From Candidatus Omnitrophota bacterium (GTDB lineage: Bacteria; Omnitrophota; Gorgyraeia; Zapsychrales; JANLHA01): a stretch of DNA of 64,000 nucleotides. Position 1 is the stretch's first letter; every line of letters starts with the position of its first letter. The notes under the pieces are model-generated. The model worked only from the letters and a program-made list of their open reading frames with translations. It was not told the origin of the DNA and did no database searches. Made by a program: the position numbers and the translations under genes. Below, one piece after another: positions 18,907 through 44,700 of this stretch. Location: positions 8,173 to 72,172 of the forward strand of contig JBFMEN010000029.1 in assembly GCA_040753435.1 (NCBI GenBank). The letters are read 5' to 3'.

Positions 18907-19020
18907 ATGACAGGATTAAGCCTGCCTTCGGCAGGCAGGAATTAAAGGATATAAGGATTAGCAGCAGGTGTTTTAATCCGTATCCCTTAATCCGGTAATC
19001 CTTAATAAGGAGTAACAGAA

Positions 19021-19224
19021 ATGCCAAAGTTAAAAACAAATAAATCAGCCGCAAAGCGTTTCAAGATCACGAAGTCCGGAAAGATCAAGAAACGCAGCGC
19101 TAATCGCGGACATATTTTAGGGAAGATGTCGCGCAAGCGAAAGAGAAAGCTTCGTCATAGCAGCTATCTTGATAAAGTAGAAGTAAAGAAGATAAGGAGG
19201 TTGTTGCCTTATGGTTCGAATTAA
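19021..19224 (+). CDS. rpmI: 50S ribosomal protein L35
   Basis: [33 protein letters not shown] matches the L35 consensus. Confidence 0.9.
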
Positions 19225-19594: not shown

Positions 19595-19632
19595 AAAGTT
19601 ATTTACAAACAAAAACCATAGTTTTATTTTAT

Positions 19633-19681
19633 GTAGAGACGTCCCTTGCCTGCCGGCAGACAGGCGCAGGGACGTCTCTAC
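19633..19681 (+). repeat. Palindromic element copy 1: GTAGAGACGTCCCT ... AGGGACGTCTCTAC (14-bp stem) enclosing an inner palindrome tgcctgccggcagacaggcgc. It lies in the pheS 5' UTR.
   Basis: Read directly. The same 13-nt arms recur at 23594-23622. Confidence 0.8.
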
Positions 19682-19702
19682 TGGTTAAAAGACAGGAAGA
19701 AA

Positions 19703-20740
19703 ATGTCCCGGGATATTGAGCTCATCAAGAAGGAAGCGCTGTCGGAATTGGCACAGGTGACGGATGCCAAAGCTCTGGAGATTTTTCGGATCAAATATCT
19801 GGGCAAAAAGGGAGTTGTTCAAGAGATGTACGCGTCGCTTGCTTCCGCTCCGGTTGAGGAAAAACGCGAGATAGGAAAGAACGCGAATATTTTGAAAACT
19901 GAGCTGAGCCGGATGTTCGATGAAAAGCAGGCGGCCGTGGATGAGATGCAAAAAAAGGCATCGAGAAAAATTATTGATATAACCATGCCCGGAGCCGGCC
20001 AGGACAAAGGCCACCGTCATGTGCTTCATCAGACTATCGACGATATTTGCAGAATTTTCGAAGGTTTTGGTTTTGTGGTTGAAGAAGGGCCCGAGGTCGA
20101 GACCGAGTTTCACAATTTCGACGCGCTGAATATTCCCGCCGAGCATCCTTCCCGTGACGGATTCGACACGTTTTATGTGGATGAAAAAGATCCGGACGAT
20201 CCCCGAAAAAATCAGTTGCTGCGCAGCCAGACTTCACCGGTCCAGATCCGCGTGATGCAGCGTCATCAGCCGCCTTTGGCGGTGGTCGTGCCTGGAAAAG
20301 TTTACCGGCCGGACGCGGTCGACGCAAGCCACTCGTTTATGTTTCATCAAATTGAAGGACTTCTTGTTGACCAAGACGTGAAATTTTCAGACCTGAAAGG
20401 GTTGATTGAGGCTTTTTTGAAAAAGCTTTTCGGTCAGGAAATCAAGATGCGTTTTCGTCCCCATTTTTTTCCTTTTACCGAACCCTCGGCGGAAGTGGAC
20501 ATTTCCTGTTACATTTGTAAAGGCAAAGGGTGTTCGGTGTGCAAGCGAACCGGATGGCTTGAGATCATGGGCTGCGGCATGGTTCATCCAAAAGTTTTTG
20601 AAGCTGCGGGATATTCGTCGGGAAAATACACAGGGCTCGCGTTCGGTTTGGGGGTGGAGCGACTGACGATGCTGCGTTACGGAATCCATGACATCCGCTT
20701 GTTTTTTGAAAACGATTTGAGGTTCTTGAAACAATTTTGA
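19703..20740 (+). CDS. pheS: Phenylalanine--tRNA ligase alpha subunit
   Basis: Class II core (FRPHFFPFTEPSAEVD, GCGMVHPKVF). The ATG at 19703 gives 345 aa. The track start at 19646 lies inside the hairpin and is rejected. Confidence 0.92.
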   Translation: MSRDIELIKKEALSELAQVTDAKALEIFRIKYLGKKGVVQEMYASLASAPVEEKREIGKNANILKTELSRMFDEKQAAVDEMQKKASRKIIDITMPGAGQDKGHRHVLHQTIDDICRIFEGFGFVVEEGPEVETEFHNFDALNIPAEHPSRDGFDTFYVDEKDPDDPRKNQLLRSQTSPVQIRVMQRHQPPLAVVVPGKVYRPDAVDASHSFMFHQIEGLLVDQDVKFSDLKGLIEAFLKKLFGQEIKMRFRPHFFPFTEPSAEVDISCYICKGKGCSVCKRTGWLEIMGCGMVHPKVFEAAGYSSGKYTGLAFGLGVERLTMLRYGIHDIRLFFENDLRFLKQF

Positions 20741-20864
20741 CAGGAAAAGCGAAAAGGGAAGGGAAAGGCGAAGCGGCCGCGGCCTGCTCCCAGATTGTTC
20801 GTTTTGTTTTTGACTTTTCGCCGTTTGATATTCGCCCGCCGCTTTTCGTTTAAAGGAATAAAAA

Positions 20865-25622: not shown

Positions 25623-28600
25623 GTGTTGCTTTTCCCCGAACGAAAGTCGTTTCATTTCAAAAAGATAGGACTTTTCATGATTCGCCGCATAACGGCTTCC
25701 ATCATTCTGGCCGTTTTTATTTTAACTATTCCTGCTCAAATGGGAATCGCGCAAGTTTTCACGCCGGTTCCAATGCCCACACAAACAGTTGGTATCAGCA
25801 ACACGTTTTTTCCTCCATTGATGGTCGGAATCCAGGTTGATCCGCAAAATCCGCTAAAATTTGATTTTTTTATGTCAAAAGGGCAAGAAAAGCTCGAAGA
25901 AAACATTAAAAAACAAGAATATTTAAAAATTTTGCGCTATTTTCTTGCGTCAATGACGATTCCTGAGGATCATCTCTGGGTTAACCTTTCTCCAACAGAG
26001 AAAGACCGGATTATCGCGGATGATTTCAGCAGAACTCAAATGGGCATGGATTTGTTGGCCCAGGATTATTTTCTGAAACAACTAACGTCTTCATTAATGA
26101 ATCCAGATGATGAAAGCGGCAAAAAGTTTTGGAAAAAAATTAAAAAAGAGGCTAAAAAACGATATGGAATTACAGAAATTCAAACAAGTGTTTTAAATCG
26201 TGTTTGGGTTCTTCCTGAAAAAGCGATTGTGTATGAACAGGAAAAATCAGCATGGGTAATTTATTGCCGGCTGAAGGTGATGCTGGAAGAAGATTTTTTA
26301 AGTTCCCCGGATCCCCAGTTCCCTGGTTCCGCAGCAAAGGATTTGACCGGGGCGCCGGGGCACGGGGGCACTGGGGAACTTGAAAAGCAGGTTATGCGCG
26401 AGGTAATCATTCCCGAATTGGAGCGCGAGGTCAACGAAGGGAAAAACTTTGCCGTCCTGCGTCAGATTGTCAATGCAATGGTAATGGCCGAATGGTACAA
26501 GAGGTCATTAAAGGAAAGTATTTTAGGGAAGGCTTATGTTAATCAGTCCAAGGTCAGCGGAATCGATACGGAAGATTTTAAACGGAAACAGCAGATTTAT
26601 GACGCTTATTTGAAGTCATTTCAACAGGGCGTTTATGATTTTATTTATGAAGATATTGATGAAGAGACCGGAGCGATTTCGCCGCAACACTATTTTTCAG
26701 GAGGATATCAGCCCGATTTAAAAAAGGCTGTTAGCGTTGTTGATGACCCTGGAGAAATCCCCCTTCAATATCGTGTTCCTTCCGAGCAATACATAAAAAA
26801 AGTAACTCAGTCCGGAATTGATCGTGTGACCGGCGGAGCGCAACTGGTAAGTTCCCCGGAGCAACAATCCACCCCAGCAAAGAGCCCTTCCGGGGAAAAT
26901 TTATCCACAAAAGGCAAGGACATTCCTTCAGACAAGGAAGCCGCAGAAAAAGGTTCTACCGGGAAACAGGGTGGGGGGCTTGATCATGCCATGCTCGCTG
27001 ATTTTAAACCCTCCAAAGATTACAGCAGGCTGGAATTTCCAGAGCTGGCAGAGGATTTTTTTCAATTGATGCAAAAATTTGTCGAGTCCCTGGACGAGGA
27101 GGAGTGGGGGCAAGCTAAACAGGTGTATGTAGATTTGAAAACGATGACCGGGTTTTTAAGCGGGAAAGCGAAGGCGCAATCTTTTGAAGATTTTCGGAAA
27201 ACTACAGGGGCGATTCTGGATCGGACGGAAATTTTTCTTCAGTTGTTCGGCGGGCGGCAGGTGAACACGGAACAGGGTTCGGCCGTCTCCGTGGACATGA
27301 ACGTTCTTCAAAAGGAAATGGTCCAGATTGGGCAGAAGAAATTTTCTGAACAGACACGAAAGCTGATTGATCAAATCATTGAGGAAGTTGTCAGCGAGCT
27401 CTTTGATGATGAGGCTGAGAAGAGAAAGTGGCGGGAAAAACTGACGCGGGATATTGTGATGATGAATTTTGAAAACATGATCCCGGAAAAGGTTATCGGC
27501 GACATCGCCGCGCATAAAGATTATTTGATCAGCACGGTCCTTGAAATGACAAAAGGCCTGGGGCAAGCTGAAGGGTTTTTTGATCCATATGCCTCCTCGC
27601 GGAAAGTTTTCTTGAAAGATTTCGACGGGAATGAAGCGTTGTTCAGGGGCGTCGTTGAGCATGAGCTTACGCATTACGGCATTTTCCGTATTCCTGAACA
27701 ATGGGAAAACATTTCATTCGCCGTCTCACTGTTGGCAGCGATTTCTTTTGCTGAAAAACAGGGCCAGGCAATCGATGTTTATTTTAAGGAATTTTCCGAT
27801 CCGCATGTTTTTACTCCTGCTCTTGTAAAAGCCTTGTTTGAAAAAGGGCGGGTGATGGGGCAAGGCGGCGAGACCGGTTTTATCGTTTCGCCTGGCGTTT
27901 CCGACCGGAACGCCGGATACTTTTCGACCGAGTATTTGCTGTCTTTGACAAGAGAGGTTTTTGAAGAGACCGGGGCGCGGACCGATCTTTTACACGATGA
28001 TTATCAAAAACAGCGCGCGGCCGGGATGATGATCGCAGGCATGTTGCTGGGCATGAATGACAAGGATGCCGCAAAAAAACCTCTCCGGCTGTTAAAAGAT
28101 TTTTTTGATGTGCTGTATGAACGCTACGGCGATCCGACCGAAGCCAGCCCTCAAACCGGTTCCGGGGTTAAAAAATTAATTCAGGATCTTGAAAAATATC
28201 TTTCCTCTTCGGCAGGGATGATCGTCAAGCTCAAACCCGTCGCGAGCGGATCCTGGAATTTCAGGACAACAGGGCAGTTTTCGGCTGAGGTGGATTTTGT
28301 TATTTCCGACCTTTTTCCCCGTTTCTACGACGGGAAAGATAAAAATGATGCTGAGGGACAGATGGAGGCCGCCCGGGAACGGGCCTTCGGCCAGGCGTTT
28401 CTCGCGTTATCGAAAACAAAGAACGGGATGCGCCACCTGATGCACGGGCTGGACCCGTCTATTCAGAACGAGCCAGCTTCGATCCATTTATGGGACACAC
28501 TGTTGTTGTCAAAGTCCGCGAAGATCGGGGTGGATGTGAACGCGCAAAAGCTGAGAACCGGATCCATTGAGGAACAATTTACCGGTTCAGGACGCTGGAT

Positions 28601-31448
28601 CATGCGTGTTTTTAAAGACCGTTTTGAGATCGGCAATCCGATGGTGGAAGAGGCCCTCTTTTTGTCCCAGCCGCGATTTTTGCGGTATCTGGATTCTCTC
28701 CTTTACCGGCGGTTTTATTATGATGAAAAGGAAAAAAAGATTGTTGATCCCAGGGTCAAAGATCCGGTCCTCGACGATGCTGTTGCCCGGACCATGGGTT
28801 CGGCCACGGATGCATCAAATTTTGGATGGGCGAAAATTTTACTGGCCCCGCAGGATTTGACCGATGATCAGATCAAGGATATTTTCAACCGGATATGGCC
28901 GGTGTTTCAGGATCTCTATGCCAGGGACTTAAAGACCGAGGTGAATTGGCGGGCCTATCAGCGCAAGATGCGGGAAGAACGTCAGCAGGCGAGACGTCAA
29001 CAGTTCGAGCAGCTGTCGCCGGAAGGACTTCAGGATCTCGAGGATTACTTCAACAGCCTGCCGGAAGAAACCCGGGAGGCGATCCGCCAGGCTGCCGAAA
29101 AGATGCTGCGCGGGCAAATGGAACAGTTCGGAGAGCAGGGGCAGGACAGGGGACAGGAACAGGGCATGGAAGGGATGGAGGGCATGGAAGGCATGCCCAT
29201 GCCCGAAATGGAAGGAAAGACGGGCCGAAAACAACAACCGGGCAAAGGAGGTTCCAGGGGTTCTCAGCAAACACTTCCCTCCGGAGCACGGCCAGGCCAG
29301 GAAATGTCCGAAGGGGAAGGCGGCGGGGAAATTTCACCTGAACAAATGCGCGGCATGATAGAGGATATCGGACGACAGTTAAAAGGTTTGGAACAGCAGA
29401 TCGATGATATTTCAAACGGGTTGAATGCCGCCCGGTCTCAGACGGAAAATCTGGACCGCGGCGCGAAAGATCTTGACCAGTCCCGGGAATTGGAACAACA
29501 GCGTGAGAAGTCCACGGACCTGCACAAAAAAGCAAAAGATTTACAGGACGATGTTCAGGGGATTTTGAATCAGGGCCGCCGGGTGGAAGAGAGAAGCCGT
29601 CATCAGGAAGACATGTCCCGGGGAATGCAAAACGGCCTGCCTTCTCCGGAAGAAGGAGAAGGAGTTGCCGAGGATTCCAGGGACCTTTCGGGGAAGGCGC
29701 AGGAACTGCTCGATAAATTATCCGGACTTCAGCAAAAGGCTAATCAGCTGGAGAGAAGCACGGGAAATCTTGAGCAAAAATATGGAGAGCATCATCCAGA
29801 TGATTCCCAGGTGGCAAGCCAGTTGCGTGATGTCGAGCGTTCTATCAAGGAAATGAAAGATCAGATTGACCAAGGCCGAGGGGCCGAACGGTCCATGCTT
29901 CGGCAATTGCATGAACTGGAACAGGGAATAGAGAAGCTGGAGAGATCTTTGGATGCGGCCCGTCAATCAGCAGCGGCGGGCAAACAACCGGTTTCAGGAC
30001 AGGAAGACAAGGGAGTCAAGGGCGCCCCAAAATCTTTGGCCTCACAAGCTCCCGCCAATTCCGGAACGAATCAACAATCATCAAGCGAGCCGATTTCCGC
30101 ATCCTCATCTCAGCCGCAGTCTTCAGGTGCCACGGCTTTAAAAGATAACGATCAATCGAAAGAACCGCAAAGCAGTCAATCTTCCGGGACGCTGCATAAG
30201 ACACCGGATACCCTTGATATGCCCAACGCGGAAAGTCTGGAGGAAATGCTTCGGGAATCTCCGGCGGAACGGGCCGACCGTCCCCGACCGAAAAGAAAAG
30301 TGCCTGATCTTAAGGCGGCCCGCCAGTATGAAGAGGATTTGCTTCAGAAAAAAACAGGACTTAACGCGAATCAGCGCGCCGAGCTGGAAACGTATTACAA
30401 CAAAAGAGTCAGATATAAGGGAAGGGAGATGACAGTCCGGCAGCTTGTTAACGACATGACAGAGCGGCTCAAGATATTGACGCTGCCAGTCGAGGATGTC
30501 GGCTTTCAGGGCAACCTGGAGCACGGACCTGTTTTTGATCCGGTCAAGGCTGTCATCGGGCATGACGCTCCTTATGGACAATGGCGGCCCAAGGAACCTT
30601 TGTCGGTTAAGATTACATTTCTTCTTGATAACAGCGTCAGTATGGATTTGGAGTTGGAAGGTGGCGTTAAGCGGATCGATGTCGTCAGACTGACCACGTT
30701 CATTTTATTGAACGCCCTGCTCAATCATAATGAGGAGCGAGCCCGGCTGGGGTATGATCCGATCGAATTTGAGATTGCCTTGTTCGAGGATTCCGAGGCA
30801 AAGCCTCTTGTGTCGCATGAGACAGTCCGGGAGAAAAATTTCCGCAAAGATCGTTTGTTGTATGAAACATGGAACGGGCTCAACGCCGCCGGGCCGGCAA
30901 CGTATTACGCGCAGAATTTGAAAAAATTTACGGCGAGACTCGCCGGCGCTCTGGATAAAGGGTTTGAAAAAAGCACCAGAATTTTAGTGAGTGTCAGTGA
31001 TGAAGATGTGGATGAAGCGCAAAAACAAGACATCCTGGAGACCTATGCTCAGGCGGAAGCGGCAGGACTGCATTTGTTTGTCGCTCCTGTTGGTAACCAA
31101 AAGCTTCTCCGGGACACGATGGATCTCCATCGGGATCATAAAGAACGCGTGATCCGCCCGTTCCCTGTTCCTGAATTTCCCGCCAACGTCATGGACGCTT
31201 TGATGGAGACAATTCCTTCGTTCGAGGCAATGGCCGGCAGGGACGGCGCCATGTTGACGGAAGAACCCAAAGCCATAGAAGGATACAAGCATTTCTTTAC
31301 CCAGAAAATCAACGGACGAGAGTATCTTGTGTTTCACGGGGAGATACCCGCCGTTATTGGGAGCGTGGACATGGAAGGCCTGGATTTGTGCCGGACAAAA
31401 GAGTTCCCGACATCTCTCCGAATGAAGACAAGATCGTCAGGATTTTAG
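25623..31448 (+). CDS. Giant-locus ORF 1 (1941 aa). It has an N-terminal hydrophobic signal/anchor, an HExxH motif, E/Q/G-rich coiled-coil and low-complexity segments, an S/Q-rich linker, and a C-terminal von Willebrand factor A domain with a MIDAS motif. The likely true start is the ATG at 25678.
   Basis: MIRRITASIILAVFILTIPAQMG hydrophobic segment. VVEHELTHYG at 27651-27680. GMEGMEGMEGMPMPEMEG and long heptad-like stretches at about 29000-29950. vWA: KITFLLDNSVSMD (DxSxS, 30621-30647) ... ETWNGLNAAGPATYY ... ILVSVSDEDVD. Confidence 0.8.
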   Translation: MLLFPERKSFHFKKIGLFMIRRITASIILAVFILTIPAQMGIAQVFTPVPMPTQTVGISNTFFPPLMVGIQVDPQNPLKFDFFMSKGQEKLEENIKKQEYLKILRYFLASMTIPEDHLWVNLSPTEKDRIIADDFSRTQMGMDLLAQDYFLKQLTSSLMNPDDESGKKFWKKIKKEAKKRYGITEIQTSVLNRVWVLPEKAIVYEQEKSAWVIYCRLKVMLEEDFLSSPDPQFPGSAAKDLTGAPGHGGTGELEKQVMREVIIPELEREVNEGKNFAVLRQIVNAMVMAEWYKRSLKESILGKAYVNQSKVSGIDTEDFKRKQQIYDAYLKSFQQGVYDFIYEDIDEETGAISPQHYFSGGYQPDLKKAVSVVDDPGEIPLQYRVPSEQYIKKVTQSGIDRVTGGAQLVSSPEQQSTPAKSPSGENLSTKGKDIPSDKEAAEKGSTGKQGGGLDHAMLADFKPSKDYSRLEFPELAEDFFQLMQKFVESLDEEEWGQAKQVYVDLKTMTGFLSGKAKAQSFEDFRKTTGAILDRTEIFLQLFGGRQVNTEQGSAVSVDMNVLQKEMVQIGQKKFSEQTRKLIDQIIEEVVSELFDDEAEKRKWREKLTRDIVMMNFENMIPEKVIGDIAAHKDYLISTVLEMTKGLGQAEGFFDPYASSRKVFLKDFDGNEALFRGVVEHELTHYGIFRIPEQWENISFAVSLLAAISFAEKQGQAIDVYFKEFSDPHVFTPALVKALFEKGRVMGQGGETGFIVSPGVSDRNAGYFSTEYLLSLTREVFEETGARTDLLHDDYQKQRAAGMMIAGMLLGMNDKDAAKKPLRLLKDFFDVLYERYGDPTEASPQTGSGVKKLIQDLEKYLSSSAGMIVKLKPVASGSWNFRTTGQFSAEVDFVISDLFPRFYDGKDKNDAEGQMEAARERAFGQAFLALSKTKNGMRHLMHGLDPSIQNEPASIHLWDTLLLSKSAKIGVDVNAQKLRTGSIEEQFTGSGRWIMRVFKDRFEIGNPMVEEALFLSQPRFLRYLDSLLYRRFYYDEKEKKIVDPRVKDPVLDDAVARTMGSATDASNFGWAKILLAPQDLTDDQIKDIFNRIWPVFQDLYARDLKTEVNWRAYQRKMREERQQARRQQFEQLSPEGLQDLEDYFNSLPEETREAIRQAAEKMLRGQMEQFGEQGQDRGQEQGMEGMEGMEGMPMPEMEGKTGRKQQPGKGGSRGSQQTLPSGARPGQEMSEGEGGGEISPEQMRGMIEDIGRQLKGLEQQIDDISNGLNAARSQTENLDRGAKDLDQSRELEQQREKSTDLHKKAKDLQDDVQGILNQGRRVEERSRHQEDMSRGMQNGLPSPEEGEGVAEDSRDLSGKAQELLDKLSGLQQKANQLERSTGNLEQKYGEHHPDDSQVASQLRDVERSIKEMKDQIDQGRGAERSMLRQLHELEQGIEKLERSLDAARQSAAAGKQPVSGQEDKGVKGAPKSLASQAPANSGTNQQSSSEPISASSSQPQSSGATALKDNDQSKEPQSSQSSGTLHKTPDTLDMPNAESLEEMLRESPAERADRPRPKRKVPDLKAARQYEEDLLQKKTGLNANQRAELETYYNKRVRYKGREMTVRQLVNDMTERLKILTLPVEDVGFQGNLEHGPVFDPVKAVIGHDAPYGQWRPKEPLSVKITFLLDNSVSMDLELEGGVKRIDVVRLTTFILLNALLNHNEERARLGYDPIEFEIALFEDSEAKPLVSHETVREKNFRKDRLLYETWNGLNAAGPATYYAQNLKKFTARLAGALDKGFEKSTRILVSVSDEDVDEAQKQDILETYAQAEAAGLHLFVAPVGNQKLLRDTMDLHRDHKERVIRPFPVPEFPANVMDALMETIPSFEAMAGRDGAMLTEEPKAIEGYKHFFTQKINGREYLVFHGEIPAVIGSVDMEGLDLCRTKEFPTSLRMKTRSSGF

Positions 31449-32788
31449 ACACTTTTTACCCTCTCGCAAAAAATTACACCTCATATTCAAACGATGGGAA
31501 GTATCTGATCCGTAAAGTTCAGGATGGTCTGATCGAGGTCCTGGAAAGCGATCAGGATGTGTTATTTAACATTGCAAACAGTAATATGGGACCGGCGATG
31601 CGTTTGGGTGCAATAAAGAAGATGAAAGAGTTGATTAAAAACGGAAAGAACGTTAAGAAATGGACAAGGATGCTGGAAGAAGTTATCCAGAGGGAAGCAG
31701 ATTTAGAAGTTTTTATCGCATTGGGAGAAGCGCTTGGAGCGGGGTATAAGGCGGGAGCTCCGGTGGGAATAACGGAGGAATGGTTTATAGCGAAATTACA
31801 TGTCGGAAAAGGGAGTATTCGTTCAGGCATGGTAAAGATGATTCAGGGAGTGATTGAAAGCGAGAAGGGCGGTGAAAAGTGGGTCAGGATGCTGGAAGAA
31901 ATGATCCATAGGGAAACAGATCCGGAAGTTTTTATCGCATTGGGAGAAGCGCTTGGAGCGGGGTATAAGGCGGGAGCTCCTGTGGGATTAACGGAAGCAG
32001 TGATTAAAGCAAATTTGAACACCGGAAACGGCATTGAGAATTGGGGAGTTCGTTTAGCTGCCGTGAAGATGATCCAGGGGTTGATTGAAGGCAGGATTGC
32101 TGTTGCGAAGTGGGTGAGAATATTGGAAGAACGTTTCAAGGTTGAAACAGAGAGGGATGTTCTAGGCGCGGTGGTCGAAGCGCTGGCAGCGGGGTATAAG
32201 GCGGGAGCTCCTGTGGGATTAACGGAAGCAGTGATTAAAGCAAATTTGAACACCGGAACCGGCGTTGAGAATTGGGGAGTTCGTTTAGCTGTCGTGAAGA
32301 TGATCCAGGGGTTGATTGAAAGCAGGATTGCTGTTGCGAAGTGGGTGAGAATATTGGAAGAACGTTTCAAGGTTGAAACAGAGAGGGATGTTCTAGGCGC
32401 GGTGGTCGAAGCGCTGGCAGCGGGGTATAAGGAGGGGGCCTCTGTGGGATTAATAGACGCAGGGATTAAAGAAAGATTAAACACCGGAAATGGCATCGAG
32501 AGCCGGAGAGTTCGTTTGGCTGCTGCGAAGGTAGCCCAGAGATTGATTGAAAGGGAGAAGCGCGATGAAGGATGGGTGGGGTTGATTGAAAGCAGGATTG
32601 CTGTTGCGAAGTGGGTGAGAATATTGGAAGAACGCTTCAAGGTTGAAACAGATCCGGAAGTTTTGATCGCATTGGCAGAAGCGCTGGCAGCGGGGTATAA
32701 GGCGGGAGCTCCTGTGGGATTAACGGAAGCAGTGATTAAAACAAATTTGAACACCGGAAACGGCGTTGAGAATTGGGGAGTTCGTTAG
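31388..32788 (+). CDS. Giant-locus ORF 2 (466 aa) made of HEAT/ARM-like helical repeat units. It is probably the same gene as ORF 3, interrupted by a 1-nt frameshift, and possibly continuous with ORF 1 through a -1 frame change.
   Basis: About 77-aa units KWVRMLEE.IQRE.D.EVFIALGEALGAGYKAGAPVG(I/L)TE... The frame is open upstream to 31174 (61-nt overlap with ORF 1). It ends at a TAG created where gttcgtttagct became gttcgttagct. Confidence 0.7.
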   Translation: MPDKRVPDISPNEDKIVRILDTFYPLAKNYTSYSNDGKYLIRKVQDGLIEVLESDQDVLFNIANSNMGPAMRLGAIKKMKELIKNGKNVKKWTRMLEEVIQREADLEVFIALGEALGAGYKAGAPVGITEEWFIAKLHVGKGSIRSGMVKMIQGVIESEKGGEKWVRMLEEMIHRETDPEVFIALGEALGAGYKAGAPVGLTEAVIKANLNTGNGIENWGVRLAAVKMIQGLIEGRIAVAKWVRILEERFKVETERDVLGAVVEALAAGYKAGAPVGLTEAVIKANLNTGTGVENWGVRLAVVKMIQGLIESRIAVAKWVRILEERFKVETERDVLGAVVEALAAGYKEGASVGLIDAGIKERLNTGNGIESRRVRLAAAKVAQRLIEREKRDEGWVGLIESRIAVAKWVRILEERFKVETDPEVLIALAEALAAGYKAGAPVGLTEAVIKTNLNTGNGVENWGVR

Positions 32789-35700
32789 CTGCCGTGAAGA
32801 TGATCCAGGGGTTGATTGAAAGCAAAATTGATGTTGCGAAGTGGGTGAGAATGTGGGTGAGAATATTGGAAGAACGTTTCAAGGTTGAAACAGAGAGGGA
32901 TGTTCTAGGCGCGGTGGTCGAAGCGCTGGCAGCGGGGTATAAGGCGGGAGCTCCTGTGGGAATAACAGACGCAGGGATTGAAGAAAGATTGAACACCGAG
33001 AATTGGGGCGGTCGTTTGGCTGCCGTGAAGATGATTCAGGGGTTTATTGAACGCAGGATTGCTGTTGCGAAGTGGGTGAGAATATTGGAAGAACGTTTCA
33101 AGGTTGAAACAGATCCAGAAGTTTTGATCGCATGGGGCGAAGCGTTGGCGGCTGGGTATGGGGAGGGAGCCCCTGTGGGATTAACAGACGCAGTGAGTTC
33201 AGGGGAATGGCGCTCGTTGCGGGAATTCGGAAAATCTTCTGAAACAAAAGAGATCAACGGGGACAACGGCGAACGAATATTTGAAAATGCCCAGGGTCTG
33301 AGGTGGAAGATTAATGAAGAGGGAAATTTTCAGATCAGCCAGAATAATGGACAATTTATTCCGCTTAAGCAAAATCTCGAAGGGAACGGGCCACGGGATC
33401 TTTACGAAATAGACGCTTCAAGAATCCTTGCCTTTGATCAGATATCCGAGACAGTGAATGTTTTGGTAAAGGAAAATGATGCCTGGCGGGTCGAGCATGA
33501 GTTGATGATGGAAGAGGAGGATCGCGCGAATTCATGGGACGGGGTCATGCTGCGGCTGATCGGCGAGACCGGACTCGGAAAAGACGAGATTACTCTTGCC
33601 GCGGCGAACCTGATCGGTGAAGAGGTTTATGTGGCGGTCGGTAATTCAGATATGGATGTGGAAGATCTCGTTACAGGGTTTCAAAGTCTTGGCGGCCAGG
33701 AGAAAGGGACGTCGGGCGTTGAGCCGTCGGGCTTGAATAAAGTGATGCATAACGGCGGCTGGTATATTATCCGGGAAGCGCACAAACTTCGCCCCGGGGT
33801 TTTCAACGCGCTCAAGTCGCATGTTTCCGCCAAAGACCACAAGTGGCCGGTTATGCGTGACGGGATTGAGCGTTTTGAGACTATTCAGAACAATCCGCGA
33901 GCGCGGGTCGTTTTATCGGTGAACCGTATTCGTAAAGGCATCACCGGCGCGAGCACCGAGACCAACGGCCCGATGCAGGACAGGGAGCGGGATCTGGAAT
34001 TTTACTGGCTTGAACCCGATGATGAAGTGGACTTGCAGGTCGAATATGCCCTGGCCATGGCCCGGGAGAAGGGCCTTCACAGTGATGATTGGGAAACGTT
34101 TGAGGATCAGGTCAGGAAAGATGCCAGAGAGCTTGTGGATATCGCGGCTCAATTGCGGCTGACATTTGCCGGATATAACGCAGAACAGCAGGCCGAGATT
34201 CTGAGAGACTGGAATTTAATCGATTCCAAAAATCTTGTCCAAAAGATGGTAAAAGACTCCCGCATTAAACAATTGTTTGAAAGCGGCCCCGCCTTTGAAA
34301 CCGGGGAAATGCTCAAGCGCCCGCCGTCACCCCGTGTGGTCAAAAATATTTTGCAGCATTTGATCCTTTTCCCCAAAGACCGCCGCTACCGGTCTTTTGA
34401 AATCGTTAAAAAATATTACAACTTTCACGCGGAGATTTCCGGCGAGCTTGAAGAAGCGGCCATTGAAAAATTTACCGAGTGGGAAAGCAAAAGGCCCGAC
34501 AGTCATCCTGTAAAACTAACGGAAAAGTCATTTATTGTTGATGGACAGGATCTTATTATCCGCCCTGAACCGGAGGCGGATGGAACAACGTATTGGGATG
34601 AGGTGCGTGTGCCCCTGCATTCAAAAGCGTCTATCCGGACACGGGGAGTTCCCGGAGAAGTTTTGGACTGGATCAAAAGCGGAGCCAACGCACAAAATCT
34701 TTACTCCTATCTCCAGGGACGCGCCTTGGGCAAACACTGGATCTTCGTTGGAAAACCCGGCGCAGGAAAATCCACCATGATTGCCGCGATTCAAAAATTA
34801 TTGAACGCGCCCGGGAGCATGAAGCTTGAGATCACGGAAGAAACCCGAAAAGATCACCTGACGTATTCTCGTAACATTAAAGAGTTTGAAACCCGTTTTA
34901 CAAAAGAAGTCCTTCCGTCGGCCATGGAGGACGAATACGGGGAAGGACAGATCCTCAATTTAACCGAGAGCACGCAGGGCCGTCCCTCGATGCTGTCTTT
35001 GCTGAACGAGGTTTCCGAACGGAACGAACTCCCGGATCCGAATTCCAAAACGCAGGTGAAGAAGGCGAAGAGAGGTTTCGGCACGATTCATGATATTAAT
35101 CCCCCGGGCACAGCCGACCGGCTGAAGGCCTTTCCCGATGATTTTATCGAGCGGCACATGATTATGTGGTTTGATACGCCCCCTTCTGACCAGGTGACGA
35201 TGTATCTGGAAGAAGCAGGCCAGGGCAGGACGTTTCCCGAAGATATAAAATTTCAGGTCCATCCTTCTTTGATCGGGCAGCCGCGACAGGACGCGAACGG
35301 GAACAGCGAGAAATATGACGACGGGGAAATCAAATATACCGGTATCGTAGGTATAGGGCAGGAGATCAATCGCAAATTGATGGAAGATCCTTATTTTTTC
35401 CCGAAAGACAGAGAGATAAGCTACCGCAATCTCCAGGCCTTTGTCAAGGCGATCGTTGCCTATTATGAGCGCGATATCAGCATGGGCAACACCCCGCAGG
35501 ATGTTATTTTGAATCTTTTTATGGAAACGTTCACGCTTGAAGGCAAGCCGGGGAAAATGCTCGAATGGCGGACAAACATTTTAAAAGTATTTCAGGATTT
35601 GGGCTTGTATGATCCCCAGGCCGGCCAGGATGACGGCAGCGGCGGTATTGTTCCCGACGCGATTGAGAAATTCCTGAACAAGGAAGGAGTGCTCGTCCAG

Positions 35701-38700
35701 AATCTTCCGGTTTTAAAAGAACCGGATTCGGGATATCTGAACATTGACCGGATATTAAGGTTTTTGCAAACAAATACGGTTGGGCTGGGGATTCGAAGAA
35801 ATCTGGATGAGTTATCCAGTGAGGCCGGAAAGCTTTTGAGCGCAGAGACGAAAGAGTCTCTTTCGAAATGGAACGCGTTACCGGTGTCCGAAAAAGCCCG
35901 CCGCCTTCGCGCGATCCGTGAGATTTATGATGTGTTGGGGCTGATTAAAGAAAACCGGTTTGATTCAAAACAGGGCCCGGCCTATCAGTCAGAGGAGCAG
36001 GTCCGCCTGGGGGCGATTATCGAGCAGATTGTTTCAGTTATCGTTGTTCAATGGAACTGGCCCCAGGAGATTTTCACCCGCGCCGATTTAACAGAGACGG
36101 CCAAAATGTCATTAACGGAAATCCTTGACCGGCAAAGAGACAGGTTCCCGGAGATTTCAAACGCGATTTACAAAGTTATGTTGTCCGACGGGAAAAAGGA
36201 ATATCTTGATGAGCTTGAGAAAGAAATCGCGAAGAAGGGAAAGGATGTCAGCGCGCTTAAGGAAATTGTAAATATTTTAAAGCAGACAAGGGCCCTGTTT
36301 TTTCAAAATTTGATCAAATCATTGAATCAAAAAATCCGGGAAGAAGAGTTGGCGGTCAGCAATCGTCAACCGGACGCTCCTGATCAGGGAAATTGGACGC
36401 GAGCCCAGGTTGAAGAAGATCTGGCGCGTGTGAATCAGTCTCTTGCCGGAATCGAAAAAGAGCGCGGGTCGTTAATAAATAATGAGGTAAAGAATATTTC
36501 TCTGCGAGAGGGGAGAGACAAACTGTTGCAGAGAATTTCATTGAGAAAAGAAGCGCTTTTGTCGGATGTGCAAAAGCAGGACGGCAATGATTTTGATTGG
36601 GAGATTCGTTTGCGGGCAGTCAGGATCATTCAGAGTTTGGTGGAAGCGGGAGATGATAGTTGGGACATGCTCCTGGAAGAAAGGATTATGAGGGAAGATG
36701 ATTTTGATGTGTTGGAAGCGCTGGGGGAAGCCTTGGGAGCGGCTTATCGCGCGGGCGCCGATGTTGGGCTGGATGAGGAGAATATTCACTTGGGGCTTGA
36801 GGCGCAAGAAGATGAGATTCGTTTTGGAGCGGTCATGATGATCCGGGCGTTGATTGAAGGGGGAAATGATATTGAAAAATGGGTCAGACTTCTGGAAAAG
36901 GCGATTGAGAAGGAAGAGGAGTTTGCTGTATTAAGGGCAATGGGAGATGTTCTCGGTATGGGATATCAAGCGGGGGTTTCATCCGGTTTGAATAAAACGA
37001 CGGTTCGCAGACAATTGAATTCCGACAAAGGAAGCGAGAGTCGCGCTATCCAAAAGATTCGGGCGTTGATCAAAGGAGGAGATGCTGCGACAAGACAGCG
37101 ATGGGTTCGCATCTTGGAGAAGAGAATTTTGATTGAAGAAGAGCCGTCTCTTGTTAAAGGGCTGGGAGAGGTATTGGGGATAGCATATAAAGAAGGAGTT
37201 CGCTGTGGACTGGATAAAGCTAAAATTCAAAGCATGATTCAAACTCCGGGTGGTTCCCCGAATTCGGATTTCAGACTCGGCGCGCTTCAAATGATCCGAG
37301 GGTTGATTGAAAAAGGGATGGATGTTGGACACTGGGTGGAGGTTTTAGAAAAGGCGATTTCGGTTGAAATGGATCAGAAACTGTTGGACCTGATGGGAGA
37401 TGCCTTGGCGGTCGGATATCAGGCCGGGGCCCCGGTTGGTTTGGATGAAAATTTCATCAAGGCCGGTCTTGAAGTAAGGGGGATTGACCATTGGGAGGGA
37501 CACCGTTTAGGTGCGGTCAAGAGCATCCGGGCGTTGATTCAGGGAGGGCATGATGTTGAAAAATGGTCGAACGTCCTGGCAGAGCGAAGGGCGAAAGAAG
37601 ATAGTCCGATTGTTGTTCCGGCGATTCAAGAGGCAATGGAAATGGGGGTTGCTTATGAAAAAATCCGGAGGGGAGATTGGGAGAGCCTTGCGGAATGGAG
37701 TTCTCTGACAGATCTTTCGTCCGCATATGAGGCGTTAAGGGCAATCAACGCGATGAGCGCGAGAAAACAAAATTCTTTTTCTTCGGAATGGAAGGACCTG
37801 TTGATCCAAAAGATACGGGCGAGAGAATCCGAGTTGACCTTAAACTCCTCTCAAGAGGATTGGAAAATGCTTGTCGTCACTGTCAGAATTATTCAGCGGT
37901 TGATTGAATCGGGGGATGATGCTGAAAAATGGGTCGGTTTTTTGGAGGATGAAATTCGGGATGAAGTACGGCCGGATGTTTTAATGGCCTTTGGAGAAGC
38001 CCTGGGGGCTGTTTACCGGAAAGGAGCTCCGTTCGGATTACGTGAAGGAATGATTCGCGTGATGCTCAATGATGATGCATATTGGAAGACACGAGCCGGA
38101 GCAGCCAGGATGATTCAAGGGTTAATTGAGAGCGGGCAGACACCCAAAAAATGGGTTTCTGTTTTAAAACGGAGACTGAAGAGCGAAAGCGATGTGGATG
38201 TTTTACATCTTATTGGAAAAGCATTGGCAGCCGCTTACAGGAGAGGGCTTCTTGCTGGCGGAGATGAAACCAGAATAAAGAGGGATGTTGAAGGAATAAA
38301 CGCGGATTGGGATAAAGGCTTTATCGCTTTAAATGTAATTAAAAGTTTGATCGAGGATGGTCAGGAAGTTGAGAAATGGGTCAGGTTTCTGGAATCGAAA
38401 ATTAAAACCGAACAAGATGACAGTATTTTAAGGGTGATGATCGAGGCGTTGGGAGCTGGGTACAGGTTCGGAATACCTGTCGAACTGGATGTGGATACGA
38501 TCAAGGAGATCCTCTCTTTCAAAGAAGATGTTATAGATTGGGAAATTCGTTTTGCTGCGGACGGGCTCGTTTTGGAATTGATTAAACGCAGACACTTGCC
38601 TGGGACGTTGGTTAATCTTTTGGAACAACAGATGCTGGTGGAAACGCATTCCCGTGTTTTGCCCGCTTTAAGCGAGGCCCTGGAAGCGGGATACCGGGCC

Positions 38701-41700
38701 GGAGTTCCATCCGGGCTGGATCCGAAAGAGGCGGAGAGAAGGTTGCAACTTGAAGGAAAAATAGAGGAAAAGAAATCTCGTTTAGGCGCGGTCAGCATGA
38801 TCCGGGCGGTAATTCAAACTGGATATGATATTGAGAAATGGCAGGATGTGCTGAGAAAGAGAATGACGGGCGAGAAGGATGAGGAAGTTCTGGCAGCGAT
38901 TAAAGAGACGCTCGCGATGGTGGATATTTATGAAAAAATCCGTCAAAACGATTTGGACGGTTTTGGGAAATTGATTTCCTCGGCGGATTTGAAAATGATC
39001 GGCGCGGTGTTCGAAGCTGTTACCGTTATGGGAAATCGGACTGGAGTGGTGGATAAAAACAGAGAGGAAGAAGTCAAGCGAAGGGAACGCCTTAAACAGC
39101 GGTGGGATCAATTGGTGAATCGCCGGAAAGTTCTGGAAGAGCTGCTTGAGGTGCTGAAGGAGCAGGAGACGCTTGGATTGCCCGGAGGGGCGTCCCTTTT
39201 TGAAGAAGAAAAAAATATTTTTTCCAGCGAGCGGAAGGAAAAACTGATTCAGAATATGGTGGCTCGGGAAACAGAGATTGAACGGGCGTTAATGACTGTT
39301 GGTGGTGGTTTCTGGAGAAACCGTTTAGCCGCGACCAAGGCAGTTCAGAGATTGATTGAAGCCGGACTGGGTGTTCAAAAAAGGGTCGGCTTTTTGGAGC
39401 AGAGAATTAAAATTGAAGACAATATTGATGTTTTAAACGCTATGGCAGCAGCGTTGGGCGCGGGTTACCGGGCTGGGGCTGCGGTTGGGTTAACTGGAAC
39501 AAAATTTGAGGAAATACTTGAAATCGAAAAAGATCACGGGGCGATTCGGAGCCCCGCAGCCAAATGGGTTTTGATCAGGAATGTTAAAATGATCCAGAGT
39601 TTGATTGAAGGCGGACATGGTGATGAGAAATGGGTCCGTCTTTTAGAACAAAGGATCGCGGTTGAAACAGATGAGGAAGTTCGGAATGTTTTAAGTGAAG
39701 CTTTGGGCAGCGGATACCGGGCCGGGATTTCTGTCGGGATGAATGAGTCGGACATTGAAGCATCTTTTCAAAAAGGGAAAGGCGGAGAAATTTACAAGAT
39801 CAGGGCTTTAATCAGGGGCGGGCATGGGAAATGGGTTGATTTTTTGGAGGAAAGAGTCAGGAAAGAAGAAAAGGACACAGCTGCCTTTTTGGGGTTGGGG
39901 AAACTTTTAGGAGAGGTTTATCAATCCGGCATTCCGACCGGCGTGGATCCGGATGTGATGATAACATTGTTGAATTCAGGAAATGGCATGACGGACAGGT
40001 TTACCCGCTTAAGTTTAGTCAGGATGATCAGAGGATTAATTGAAGGAGGGCAGGATGTCGGGGTCTGGGTGAAAGCTTTGGAAGAAAGGATGAAAAAAGA
40101 AACAAATTATGATGTTCTTCAAAGCATTGGCGAGGCTTTGGGGGCCGCATATCGTTCCGGCGCCCATGTCGGTTTGGATCTGGATACGATTAAGAGTAAG
40201 TTAAATTTTGAAGGTGAAGATGCCAATGCCGGGTGGCCGGTTCGTTTCGGCGCAGCCAGGATGATTCAGGGCCTGATTGAAAGAGGATACAACGTTGAGC
40301 AATTGATGATTATGATAAAAGAGCGAGTGAGAGACGAAGAAATAAATATCGATGTCCAACGGGCGCTTCAGGAAACACTCGCGATGGCGGGTATTTATGA
40401 AAAAATCCGTCAGAACGATCTGGACGGTTTTGGGAAATGGATTTCCTCGGCGAATTTGACAACGGTTATTGCGGCGGTAGAGGTTCTTGACGCTATGAGA
40501 TCGGAAGGAAAAAATATTCTTTGGCGTGAATGGAAGGAGAAGTTATATCAGAGCGTTGTGTCACGGAAAGCCGGATTGTCCTTGACTTCCCATGTGGAAG
40601 ACAGGAAAGGGCTTTTAGTTAAAGTCGGGATCATCCAGCGGTTGATTGAAGCGGGACAGGATGTTCAAAAATGGGTCGGTCTTCTGGAGGATGAAATTTG
40701 GGATGAAGTGAGGCCGGATGTTGTAATGGCCATGGGAGAAGCGCTGGGGGCTGGTTACCGGAAAGGAGCCGTGACCGCTTTAACCGAAGAAATGATTGCA
40801 GGGATGCTTAATGACGACTCTGGCGATGAGTCCTGGAAAAAAAGAGTCGGAGCAGCCCGGATGATGCAAGGGTTGATTGAGAGCGGGAATGAACCTGCAA
40901 AATGGGCTGCTATTTTGGAACAGAGATTAAGGACGGGAATCGATGGCACTTGGGTTTTAAATGCTCTTGGGGATGCGCTGGCTGCCGCATATAGAAGAGG
41001 AATTCCTGCTGCTTGGGATGAAGAAACGATCAAAACGAATTTCATCGGAAAAGACGATGATTGGAATAAAGGCTTTATCGCGGCTAATGTGATTAAAAGG
41101 CTGATTGAGGATGGCCAGGAAGTTGAGAAATGGGTCAGGTTTTTGGAACAGAATGTTGATTTTACAAAAAATGACAGTTTTTTAAGAAGTTCGATTGAGA
41201 CGTTGGCAACGGGATACCGATCCGGAATTTCCTCAGGGTTGCAACCGAATATAATCTTTGATGTACTTAATTTCGGAGCAGATTCTTCAGGGTGGGGAAT
41301 TCGTTTCGCCGCGGCCGGGTTGGTTGGGAGCTTAATTGAAAGCGGGCAGGCTCGCGAAAAATGGGTTGGTGTTTTGGAACTCAGGATTTTTGGGGAAGAA
41401 GATTTTCGTGTTTTGCGGGCTTTAAGCGATGCCCTGGGAGCGGGATACCGGGCCGGAGTTCCGGTCGGGCTGGATCCGGAAGATGTTGAGAAAGGGATTG
41501 ATCTTGAAGGGGAGACAGGGGAACAGAAATTTCGTTTTCGCGAGGTTAGCCTGATCGGGGCGTTCATTCAAGCCGGATATGATATTGAGAAATGGCGGGA
41601 TGTGCTGAAAAAGAGAATGGCGGTCGAGAAGGATGAGAATGTTCTATCGGTGATTAAAGAGACACTCACGACGGCGGTTGTCGATGAAAAAATCCGTCAA

Positions 41701-44700
41701 AACGATCTGGAAGGTTTCGGGAAATGGGTTTCCTTGGCGCATTTGACAACGATCAGGACGGCGTTAGAGGTTGTTAACACCATGGAAAAGCGGATGGGAT
41801 CGGTGGATAAAAACAGAGAGGAAGAAATCAAGCGAAGAGAACGCATTCAACAGCGGCGGGAGCAATTGATGGAGCGCCGGAAAGTCCTGGAAGAGTTGCT
41901 TGAGGTGTTAAGGGAACAGGAGGGGCTCGGGTTGACTGGAGGGGCGGTCTTTTCTGAAGAAGAAAAAAATATTTTTTCCCGTGAATGGAAGGAGAATTTA
42001 TATCAGAAAATTTTATCAAGGAAAGAAGAGATCAAAAAGGCGTTAGGTGCCGAAGATTTACAGATTCGACTTGACGCAGTTTCGGTCATCCGGGAGCTGA
42101 TTGAAAATGGGAAAGACATCGGGGAGTGGGTTGAAGTTTTGGAACAGCGGTTCAGGATTGAGGATGAGCCCAGGCTCGTCAAGGCTTTGGGGGAGGCGCT
42201 TGGATCCGCTTACCGGACAGGGGTGCCATGCGGCCTGAGCGAAGAGGAAACAAGAAAAAAGCTTGATCCATCGAACTGGGAGGCGAGTCATTTTGAATTA
42301 ATGCGATTTGGAGCAATCAAGCTGATCCATGGACTTATAGAAGGAGGGCATGATAAAGAAAAATGGGTTCGTATTTTAGAAGAAAAATTTTCTTTGTCTG
42401 AGGCCTCAGCTGCCTCGATAGCTTTAGCTGAGGCTCTGGTTGAGGGCTATCGGGACGGGGTCGCGCCTGGATTAAAGGAAGAAGGGCTTGAGACGATGCT
42501 TACTTTCGGAGAGGGGGATGGCTTTTGGCGGTTTCGCCTCGCCGCAATTAAAGTCATTAAATTTTTGATTGAAAAAGGAGAGAATGTCCCGAAGTGGGTT
42601 GAAATGTTGGAGAAGCGAATCCTCGTGGAAAAGAATGATACGGTTATGAAAGCGCTTAGTGAGGCGCTGGGTATCGGATACAGGGCGGGAGCCCCAGCCG
42701 GATTGAACGAAACATTGATCAATACGAGCCTTGGGATAGGAAGCAGTGTAATGCGAAAGAGGGAAGTCAGAAAAATCCAGAGCTTGATTGAAGGAGGACG
42801 GGATATCGGGAAGTGGGTTGCTGTTTTGGAGATGCGGATTAATGTTGAAACAAATACGGAAGTTTTAAGTGCGCTCGCGGAAGCGTTAAGCGCGGGTTAC
42901 CGTGCCGGTGCTGCGGTCGGGCTAAACGAAACAGCGATTCTGGCGGGATTGAATCCAGGGAAAAATGAAGAAGAAGGAGTGCGGGCGGTCAAAATGATCC
43001 AAAGCCTGATTGATGCGGGGCTCAATGTCGAAAAATGGGTACGGGTTTTGGAACACAAAATGAAAGAGGAAAACCGCGATCGTGTTGTGCAGGTTATGGA
43101 AGATGCCGTAATTGCGGGTTATCAGGGCGGAGTTTCTGTCGGTTTGGACAAAGAAACGGTGATGAAGATGCTTTATTGGGAAAAAGATGTTTTAAGCTGG
43201 GAAATTCGGTTGAGAGCAGGCCGGATCATTCAGGCCTTGATTCAGGAAGGCCGTGAGATCGAGACCTGGGTGGCCATATTGAAATCGAGGAAAAAAAGAG
43301 AGAGAACGTGGGATGTTTCATCGGCGCTTCAGGAAACGATCGAGACGGCAGATGCTTATAAAAAAATTCGTCAGAACGATCTGGAGGATTTCGGTAAATG
43401 GCTCTCTTCGGCGGATTTGAAAATGATCGACCCGGTGTTCAAAGCTGTTAACGTCATGGAAAACCGGGCTGGAGTGGTGGATAAAAACAGAGAGGAAGAA
43501 ATCAAGCGAAGGGAACGCCTTCAACAGCGGCAGGATCAATTGGTTAATCGTCGGAAAGTCCTGGAAGAGTTGCTTGAGGTATTGAAGCAGCTGGAAACAG
43601 TGAAAACAACATTTGTCAGGACACGGCAATGGACTTCGGCAGAAACCGGGACAGTGGCAGAGATGAAAAAGCAAACGGTTGAGGTTCTCCGGGCCAAAGA
43701 ACAAGAGATGATGGAGGAGTCGTTTTCAAAAGAGAAGGCAAGATTAATTCAATTGTTGATTGAAAATGGAAGTGACGTTGAGAAGAGGAAGTGGGTAGGG
43801 ATATTGGAAGAACGGGCAAAGAGTGAAACAGACATTGACGTTGCTCGTTCCTTGGGAGCTGCTCTTGGAGCGGGATACCGTGCCGGGGTTCTTCCGGGTT
43901 TAACGGAAGCAGAGATTCAAAACAATTTAAATATTGCCTGGATTGGGGGAATTCGGTTCGGTGCTGTAAAGATGATTCAAGGGTTGATTGAAAAAGGAAT
44001 TAACGTTGAGGCGTGGGTAAGGATATTGGAAAAACGGGTAAAGATTGAAACAGACAATGACGTTGCTCGTTCCTTGGGAGCTGCTCTTGGAGCGGGATAC
44101 CGTGCCAGGGTTCTTCCGGGTTTAACGGAAGCAGAGATTCAGAAAAATTTAAATACCGGAAACGGCACTGATAATTGCGGTATTCGTTTCATTGCAGTGA
44201 AGATGATTCAGGGGTTGATGGAAAACGGTCAGGATGTTGAGAAGTGGGTGAGAGCATTGGAAGAATGGGCAAAGAGTGAAACAGAAGCAGATGTTATTCT
44301 CGCGCTGGAGGAAGCGCTTGTAGCGGGATATCGGGCCGGAGTACTTGCGGGATTAAAGGAAGAAGAGATTAAAGAAAATTTGAACAGCGTGGTTTGGAAT
44401 ATTCGTTTCATTGCCGTGAAGATGATTCAGGGGTTGATTGAAAACGGTCGGGATGTTGCGAAGTGGGTGAGAGCGTTGGAAGAACGGGCAAAGAGTGAAA
44501 CAGATGGAGATGTTATTTTCGCCTTGGTAGAAGCGCTTGTAGCGGGATACAAGACTGGAGTTTTTCCGGGATTAACGGAAACAGAGATTCAGCGAAATTT
44601 AAATGCTGGAAACGACTCTGAAGATTGGAATATTCGTTTGATTGCAGTGAAGATGATTCAGGGGTTGATTGAAAACGGTCAGGATGCTGAGAAGTGGGTG

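Follow-up and report, generated by a model that had tools for sequence, protein, structure and literature searches.

The window analysed here is a 64,000-nucleotide stretch of contig JBFMEN010000029.1 from a Candidatus Omnitrophota bacterium, and its subject is a giant gene on the + strand whose product carries two tandem AAA_5 modules. We read these as a conserved tandem pair of clade-7 AAA+ modules, of which module 1 would sense nucleotide without hydrolysing it, module 2 would act as a slow motor site, and the pair would be coupled to a von Willebrand factor A (VWA) domain encoded upstream. Judged from the sequence evidence, we give this reading about an even chance (roughly 50%). The pair is real and not an artefact; it departs to a moderate degree from an ATPase type that is already known, and the alteration of its Mg2+-handling residues is conserved across a protein family not described before.

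Both modules lie in the open reading frame (ORF) 32773..46872 on the + strand (4,699 amino acids, aa), to which residue numbers such as R334 and T731 refer; the AlphaFold2 (AF2) model described below has separate numbering. Nine motif strings picked out in a first-pass annotation of the window each occur once in this ORF, within 33562-35157. The motifs at the two nucleotide sites are as follows.

33562-33588, + strand: module 1 Walker A, GETGLGKDE
33760-33825, + strand: module 1 Walker B segment, WYIIREAHKLRPGVFNALKSHV, with the R334 codon CGG at 33772-33774
33772-33777, + strand: R-E of the module 1 Walker B YIIR-E, with R at 33772-33774 and E335 at 33775-33777
33901-33924, + strand: module 1 ARVVLSVN, with sensor-1 N384 at 33922-33924
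33970-34002, + strand: module 1 PMQDRERDLEF, with Arg finger R404 at 33982-33984
34321-34335, + strand: module 1 sensor-2 PPSPR, with R521 at 34333-34335
34747-34776, + strand: module 2 VGKPGAGKST, with the canonical Walker A GKPGAGKS at 34750-34773
34951-35013, + strand: module 2 Walker B segment, ILNLTESTQGRPSMLSLLNEV, with the T731 codon ACC at 34963-34965
34963-34968, + strand: T-E of the module 2 Walker B LNLT-E, with T at 34963-34965 and E732 at 34966-34968
35083-35109, + strand: module 2 TIHDINPPG, with sensor-1 N776 at 35098-35100
35131-35157, + strand: module 2 FPDDFIERH, with Arg finger R794 at 35152-35154
35410-35412, + strand: module 2 sensor-2-like R880 (R731 in model numbering)

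The Walker A consensus GxxxxGK[ST] is present in module 2 (GKPGAGKS) and absent from module 1 (GETGLGKD). Neither module has the Walker B consensus hhhhDE, the Asp being replaced and the Glu kept in each, while the sensor-1 Asn, Arg finger and sensor-2 Arg are present in both (N384/R404/R521 and N776/R794/R880). Set against the curated gathering score of 22 bits for Pfam AAA_5 (PF07728), module 1 alone scores 32.1 bits (E=1.3e-7) and module 2 alone 48.4 bits (E=1.3e-12), both above the cut-off, and the whole region matches in two stretches (E=4e-21). A scan of NCBIfam gave no useful match. Searches with Pfam and with a family hidden Markov model (HMM) found no further AAA modules beyond these two across the 7,083-aa protein. 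The match of motifs and AAA_5 profile to tandem modules is far beyond chance, and the pair has the overall fold and the beta-hairpin insert before sensor 1 of clade-7 AAA+ proteins (the MoxR/dynein/midasin/MCM group). The two tandem AAA_5 modules in MoxR/midasin/dynein layout proposed by the first-pass annotation are therefore borne out by each module on its own. The range it gave, 33190-35300, spans both alpha/beta cores but cuts off the lid of module 2, which reaches ~35900. The region divides as follows.

33220..33546, + strand: beta-rich domain before module 1, conserved in part among homologues (AF2 strands at model residues 10-96, predicted local distance difference test score, pLDDT, 40-75)
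33547..34005, + strand: AAA module 1 alpha/beta core, Pfam AAA_5 (AF2 pLDDT about 85-92; pre-sensor-1 beta-hairpin at E206-223 in model numbering)
34015..34482, + strand: module 1 lid (AF2 helical, pLDDT >90)
34483..34734, + strand: inter-module linker, a small beta unit and a helix (AF2 strands 438-465, helix 488-502), with motifs W..D and LYxxLQ conserved in the family
34735..35172, + strand: AAA module 2 alpha/beta core, Pfam AAA_5
35185..35907, + strand: module 2 lid and helical extension (AF2 helical at model residues 656-895)

Structure prediction, one of the checks proposed for these modules, points the same way. The AF2 model of the AAA pair, built from a 24-sequence alignment, has a pLDDT of 83.8 and a predicted template modelling score (pTM) of 0.77. 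Over 522 residues it can be superposed at 5.1 A on a pair of neighbouring AAA modules of dynein, and Foldseek aligns it over ~840 columns to dynein AAA1-3 with a query TM-score of 0.41-0.44. From the superposition and this alignment, the pair is predicted to be packed roughly like neighbours in the dynein or midasin ring.

The placement of Arg and Thr at the Walker B Asp position, also claimed in the first pass, holds because three independent alignments agree on it. A pairwise HMMER alignment with NorQ (9qh4) pairs T731 with D108, E732 with residue 109 and N776 with N153; in NorQ, E109Q is the Walker B mutant and N153 is sensor 1 (PMC13036017). When the family profile is aligned with midasin, its Walker B columns fall on LLLDEVN (AAA2) and IVLDELN (AAA3). 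In an alignment of ~45 family members, many have a canonical D-E at the R334 and T731 columns. The description of the replaced Asp as catalytic needs correction, since this Asp pairs with the Walker A Ser/Thr and with the Mg2+ waters (PMC9599734), and both modules still have their catalytic Glu.

The protein, named only 'AAA family ATPase' by NCBI (MEW5894894.1), belongs to a sizeable family. A word-indexed protein search returned one relative, P0001, and an exhaustive HMM search of 1.84 billion representatives returned 328 matches, 48 of them below 1e-30. About 45 proteins share the double module, with eukaryotic midasins ranking below them, and the members that carry a source name or record title come mostly from Omnitrophota metagenome-assembled genomes. 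The contigs of L001, L003, L005, L006 and L009 are binned as Planctomycetales, Planctomycetia, Actinomycetota, a Methanosarcinales archaeon or 'uncultured bacterium'. Such labels probably reflect the mis-binning of short contigs, although the Methanosarcinales-binned one could instead reflect a physical association. Many members are 3,000-7,500 aa long. The family core combines a signal-like N-terminus with an HExxH region, a VWA domain that has a metal ion-dependent adhesion site (MIDAS), and the two AAA_5 modules; C-terminal parts differ, with WD40 in L002, NHL in P0001 and HEAT in the window protein. As the VWA-AAA order is shared and the C-terminal parts vary, the VWA domain and the two AAA modules are taken as the conserved part. 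The pair would then be the core of a giant Omnitrophota protein family with at least 40 representatives. A search of the literature for Omnitrophota with von Willebrand, vWA or MoxR found no description of this architecture. In L002 a second giant ORF (14685..22301, running off the locus end) lies directly downstream of the homologue and has the same N-terminal domain (KVWILPD...LKVMMEEDY), so that giant paralogues stand in tandem there.

Conservation within this family separates the Mg2+ site from the rest of each nucleotide site. Counts were taken from HMM hits not selected by motif; the contig scan used the pattern ETGLGKDE, which biases motif invariance in L001-L010, and was left out of them. 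In module 1 (n=44) the residue after the P-loop Lys is Asp in 26 members, Gly in 14, Glu in two, Asn in one (P0022 has GKN in its Walker A) and Ser in one, and never Thr. The first Walker A had been called degenerate; GETGLGKD is indeed non-canonical but it is not random, the non-Ser/Thr residue after the Lys being family-wide. At the Walker B Asp position the same 44 members have Asp (28), Arg (10), Ser (4), Gln (1) or Glu (1). Module 2 keeps Ser/Thr after the P-loop Lys in all members, and its Walker B Asp position (n=45) holds Glu (29), Asp (12), Ser (2), Thr (1) or Gly (1). The Walker B Glu is unchanged in 44/44 sequences for module 1 and 47/47 for module 2. Module 1 is also invariant at the P-loop Gly and Lys, the sensor-1 Asn, the Arg finger and the sensor-2 Ser-Pro-Arg (with the Glu, G115, K121, E186, N235 and R255 in model numbering, from 24-30 sequences; also S370 and R372), and module 2 at the P-loop Gly and Lys, the sensor-1 Asn and the Arg finger (G511, G516, K517, E583, N627 and R645, the Glu included), its sensor-2 Arg R880 being at least 90% conserved. 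Only two nucleotide-site positions vary, both of them at the Mg2+ site: the Walker A residue after the Lys and the Walker B Asp.

In module 1, Walker B Arg is always paired with Asp after the P-loop Lys (10/10). The Arg occurs mainly in one deep clade of the neighbour-joining tree that includes the window protein (P0031 is the one outlier), and it persists across this clade although the members are just ~40-57% identical. Checked in orthologues, the Arg is thus conserved within its clade (10/44) but the Thr of module 2 is not: it was found in the window protein alone among the sampled sequences, its nearest relative L001 (56% identical) having Ser and the others Asp or Glu. In P-loop NTPases generally, a hydrogen bond of down to 2.4 A links the Walker A Ser/Thr to the Walker B Asp (PMC9599734), and the residues that occupy these two positions should therefore be in contact.

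Both modules might nevertheless be ordinary active ATPases that tolerate the substitutions, with Asp271, Thr731 or the Glu of the relatives still organising Mg2+. Every other catalytic residue is invariant, Glu is the commonest residue at the Asp position of module 2 (29/45), midasin AAA1 also has Glu there (LIEDID), and TorsinA, with GKN in its Walker A, still hydrolyses ATP (PMC5628414). We consider this unlikely, as Arg at the Walker B Asp position would bring a positive charge into the place of Mg2+ and its waters, more than 3,000 catalytic sites are said to conserve the Ser/Thr-Asp pair strictly (PMC9599734), and module 1 is without the Ser/Thr in 43/44 members.

The substitutions could also be signs of decay, since the gene is broken by two frameshifts into three ORFs, the first of which (25623..31448) encodes 1,941 aa.

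25623..46872, + strand: reconstructed gene of ~7,083 codons, likely start ATG at 25677
25623-31448, 31388-32788 and 32773-46872, + strand: three ORFs of one gene, with two 1-nt deletions between them
31336..31339, + strand: frameshift 1, a G-run one base short
32785..32786, + strand: frameshift 2, TT where the sister repeats have TTT

At frameshift 1, frame 0 reads ...REYLVFHG and frame 2 carries on as ...RRYWERGHG..VPDISPNEDKIV, the homologues reading an unbroken FLVFKRGNETLYWERGLGG..VPDIAPNEDKIV. At frameshift 2 the site sequence is GTTCGTTAGCTGCC, and the sister repeats at 32042 and 32273 have GTTCGTTTAGCTGCC; the DNA is GTTCGTTAGC here versus GTTCGTTTAGC in the two sister repeats. ORF 31388..32788 ends in ...ENWGVR and a stop, ORF 32773..46872 begins ...LAAVKMIQGLIE, and the sister repeats read ENWGVRLAAVKMIQGLIE. 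Once a single base is restored at each site, the frame stays open for 7,083 codons, and the homologues L001, L002 and L003 are contiguous across both junctions. Both homopolymer deletions are probably sequencing or assembly errors. A decaying pseudogene, with R334 and T731 as part of its decay, would account for the frameshifts and for a T731 that is unique among the sampled sequences. We reject it as very improbable: both lesions are 1-nt homopolymer deletions in a gene that is stop-free once corrected, R334 is common to 10 representatives in a deep clade and takes at least two base changes from Asp, and all other functional residues are intact.

Two features go beyond what the first-pass annotation had seen, namely that its ORF is a fragment of a gene encoding 7,083 aa, and that this gene also encodes a MIDAS-VWA domain, upstream of the AAA pair.

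30606..31214, + strand: VWA domain with a full MIDAS site
30627 (D), 30633 (S), 30639 (S), 30900 (T) and 30999 (D), + strand: MIDAS residues

The window VWA sequence alone has no Pfam match. The domain is assigned because the five MIDAS residues (DxSxS..T..D) are unchanged in 19 diverse family sequences, the family profile matches integrin I domains (E=2.6e-4), and the AF2 model (pLDDT 80.4) has VWA domains for all its top Foldseek matches (E=8e-9, TM-score up to 0.72). It lies ~100-600 residues upstream of the AAA pair in 31/32 members in which both were detected. The exception is P0012 (3,579 aa), with its AAA pair at 913-1693 and a family-type VWA downstream at 3097-3337. The modules had been placed inside a solenoid, which is true of the window protein, but in homologues the AAA pair directly follows the VWA domain. 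In MoxR ATPases a finger of the VWA partner enters the pore of the ring, and midasin does likewise (PMC13036017).

Several points weigh against a sensing module and a slow motor coupled to this VWA domain. The TorsinA precedent means that a non-Ser/Thr residue after the Lys is by itself no proof of inactivity. The association of Arg with Asp is suggestive, and would represent one or two evolutionary origins, not statistically independent cases. With just two modules per chain, it would take three copies of this 7,000-residue protein to close a ring. A HEAT insertion moves the VWA domain and the AAA pair of the window protein a further 540 residues apart. The last point is topology. The N-terminus is signal-like: its n-region carries positive charge, its hydrophobic core is 15 residues long, and small residues stand at GIA|Q. 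No transmembrane segment follows it.

25677..25754, + strand: signal-peptide-like segment, MIRRITASIILAVFILTIPAQMGIAQ, the sole hydrophobic segment in the protein

From this N-terminus and the lack of another hydrophobic segment, the AAA pair would be placed outside the cytoplasm, where ATP is scarce. A crude signal-peptide filter, used in place of a dedicated predictor, passed 19/28 family members and 3/17 control ORFs, all three of these controls being membrane or exported proteins. A transmembrane-like segment between VWA and AAA pair was found in 8/32 relatives and in none of the window's clade; it stands just after the VWA domain in P0018, P0021, P0023, P0026, P0030, P0040 and P0042 (and L004/L008). 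There the VWA domain would be outside and the pair inside, which argues against direct VWA-AAA coupling in those proteins. The segments imply, as predicted features, differing membrane topologies within one family, and the topology of the window protein and that of the 8/32 relatives are in conflict.

An exported pair could be a structural relic, a rigid hub or ligand-binding domain secreted by the Sec route that works outside the cell with no nucleotide and no enzymatic role. The signal-like N-terminus of the window protein and most relatives and the lack of a later transmembrane segment in the window protein fit this, as does the fact that the relaxed residues are exactly those of the Mg2+ site. 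It would be hard to explain without nucleotide, however, why both modules keep the Lys, Glu, sensor-1 Asn and Arg finger without exception, and the sensor-2 Arg with few or none, in sequences down to 25% identity. The transmembrane-like segment of 8/32 relatives would also make the pair cytoplasmic, and the signal peptides were judged by the crude filter. We hold a relic to be an unlikely explanation.

We return to the reading of a sensing module 1 and a slow motor in module 2. In the Arg clade, Asp271 and Arg334 of module 1 would replace the Ser and Asp of the Mg2+ network. With opposite charges at contacting positions a salt bridge is expected, and this predicted Asp271-Arg334 bridge would probably fill the metal site of the Ser-Asp-Mg2+ network. 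Module 1 is read as nucleotide-binding because its Lys, Glu, sensors and Arg finger are all conserved, and it would be a regulatory site for binding and sensing nucleotide that is non-hydrolysing or metal-independent. Module 2, with its canonical P-loop, would be the working site, probably made slow in the window protein by Thr in place of Asp/Glu, and from the ring-neighbour packing of the model its Arg finger may complete the site of module 1. If NorQ-NorD and midasin are a guide, nucleotide would drive the pair to move and this motion would be linked to the VWA/MIDAS domain, which would grip a ligand, with the HEAT solenoid as a scaffold or lever; the pair would either move that domain or be regulated by it. 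A bolder version, which we regard as speculative and rather improbable, is a self-contained bacterial 'mini-midasin', a giant protein secreted or located at the surface, whose two-module unit trimerises to a six-module ring that pulls its own MIDAS-VWA, an Asp-Arg salt bridge replacing the Ser-Asp-Mg2+ triad in one site to give a metal-free nucleotide sensor. Such a machine might act outside the cytoplasm or in prey cells.

Among known systems, midasin (Rea1/Mdn1) is the closest in profile, with family profile matches of 8e-57 to midasin, 3.5e-12 to CbbQ and 6e-12 to NorQ. Like the window protein, midasin has tandem AAA_5 modules and a MIDAS/VWA in one giant chain and mixes canonical and degenerate modules, its AAA1 with Glu at the Walker B Asp position; the module 1 P-loop GETGxGK resembles those of midasin AAA2 and AAA4. 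Midasin differs in having six modules that form a closed ring in one chain, where the window protein has two, and in a C-terminal MIDAS after a D/E-rich linker, where the window VWA is N-terminal to the AAA pair. It is also a eukaryotic, nuclear protein of ribosome assembly, whose MIDAS docks on the AAA ring and strips assembly factors with UBL domains from the pre-60S particle, a eukaryotic setting that is absent here, and it has no GK-D / R-E pair. Among the matches P0059-P0150, midasin AAA1, 3 and 5 score much better with the module-2 HMM, whereas for the even modules the module-1 HMM has a slight edge on pieces with the P-loop or Walker B. This odd/even pattern depends on differences of a few bits, and the C-terminal half of AAA4 runs counter to it; an origin of the midasin ring from a two-module ancestral unit is a weak lead.

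The MoxR-VWA systems (NorQ-NorD, CbbQ-CbbO, CobS-CobT and RavA-ViaA) are built from single-module subunits of ~270-500 aa that form homohexamers, with canonical GK[ST] and DE and with the VWA on a separate protein, whereas the window protein fuses two diverged modules and a VWA in a chain of 7,083 aa with a signal-like N-terminus. The dynein heavy chain, like this family as read here, combines hydrolysing and non-hydrolysing nucleotide sites. Besides its six modules it has a linker, a stalk and a microtubule-binding domain, and its sequence identity to the pair is ~12%. Degenerate sites in dynein lose the catalytic Glu or the P-loop, not the residues of the Mg2+ pair. TorsinA, also an AAA+ protein, resembles module 1 in that the residue following its P-loop Lys is neither Ser nor Thr (GxxxxGKN), and it sits in a secretory compartment (PMC5628414). 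It belongs to another AAA+ clade, is built on one module with a canonical DE, and takes its Arg finger from a partner, whereas the present family keeps its own. For the giant Omnitrophota 'Archaeovorins', which come from this phylum too, HEAT_2 and AAA_5 are listed with the commonest domains (West-Roberts et al., 2023, preprint). A word search of that preprint found no VWA, von Willebrand or MoxR, and no description of Walker motif variation (West-Roberts et al., 2023).

From N- to C-terminus, the reconstructed window protein consists of the signal-like segment, the HExxH region, a coiled-coil/low-complexity stretch, the VWA domain, eight HEAT-like repeats, the beta-rich domain, the two AAA modules with their lids, the helical extension and thirty-seven further HEAT-like repeats. 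The giant proteins described earlier from the phylum are reportedly larger than this one of ~7,100 aa. Features away from the VWA-AAA core, and the next gene, are listed below.

27660..27674, + strand: HExxH motif HELTH, in a conserved N-terminal region (~27300-28100)
31598..33205, + strand: eight HEAT-like repeats (~76 aa) upstream of the AAA pair, found with an iterative HMM on the reconstructed protein; weak Pfam HEAT_2 match
36604..46423, + strand: thirty-seven HEAT-like repeats in seven blocks, with spacers of 60-130 aa
46750-46869: C-terminal tail
47066-47734: next gene downstream, whose 222-aa product has a signal peptide and carries the PEP-CTERM sorting motif (Pfam E=1.9e-7)

The H-E-x-x-H is invariant in 8 aligned homologues and is followed by a conserved WE ~20 residues downstream. 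The region has no Pfam match; that it may be a zincin-type metallopeptidase is a lead only. Overall there are 45 copies of the 76-aa HEAT-like unit in eight blocks, many of them near-identical in DNA, and the spacers are coiled-coil-like with a repeated VDKNREEE..RRKVLEELLEVLK motif. The eight upstream copies are missing at that position in homologues, which suggests a recent repeat expansion. The C-terminal tails of the window protein (…GLTPVIIEIAPGSFP…) and L002 (…GLVPIIKDITPMPLP…) are alike and could be a conserved sorting or anchoring signal.

Few features of P-loop NTPases are as highly conserved as the pairing of a Walker A Ser/Thr with a Walker B Asp. Nearly every member of this family lacks one of the partners, and one clade swaps both for an Asp-Arg pair of opposite charge. 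With the remaining catalytic residues fixed, the family is a natural experiment on the Ser/Thr-Asp pair, and a metal-independent nucleotide switch could be embodied in it. If the modules do lie outside the cytoplasm, they would be, to our knowledge, the first bacterial extracytoplasmic AAA+ modules. For the giant proteins of Omnitrophota, so far annotated 'AAA family ATPase', a conserved core is now defined, and with it an excisable target of ~900 residues for their study.

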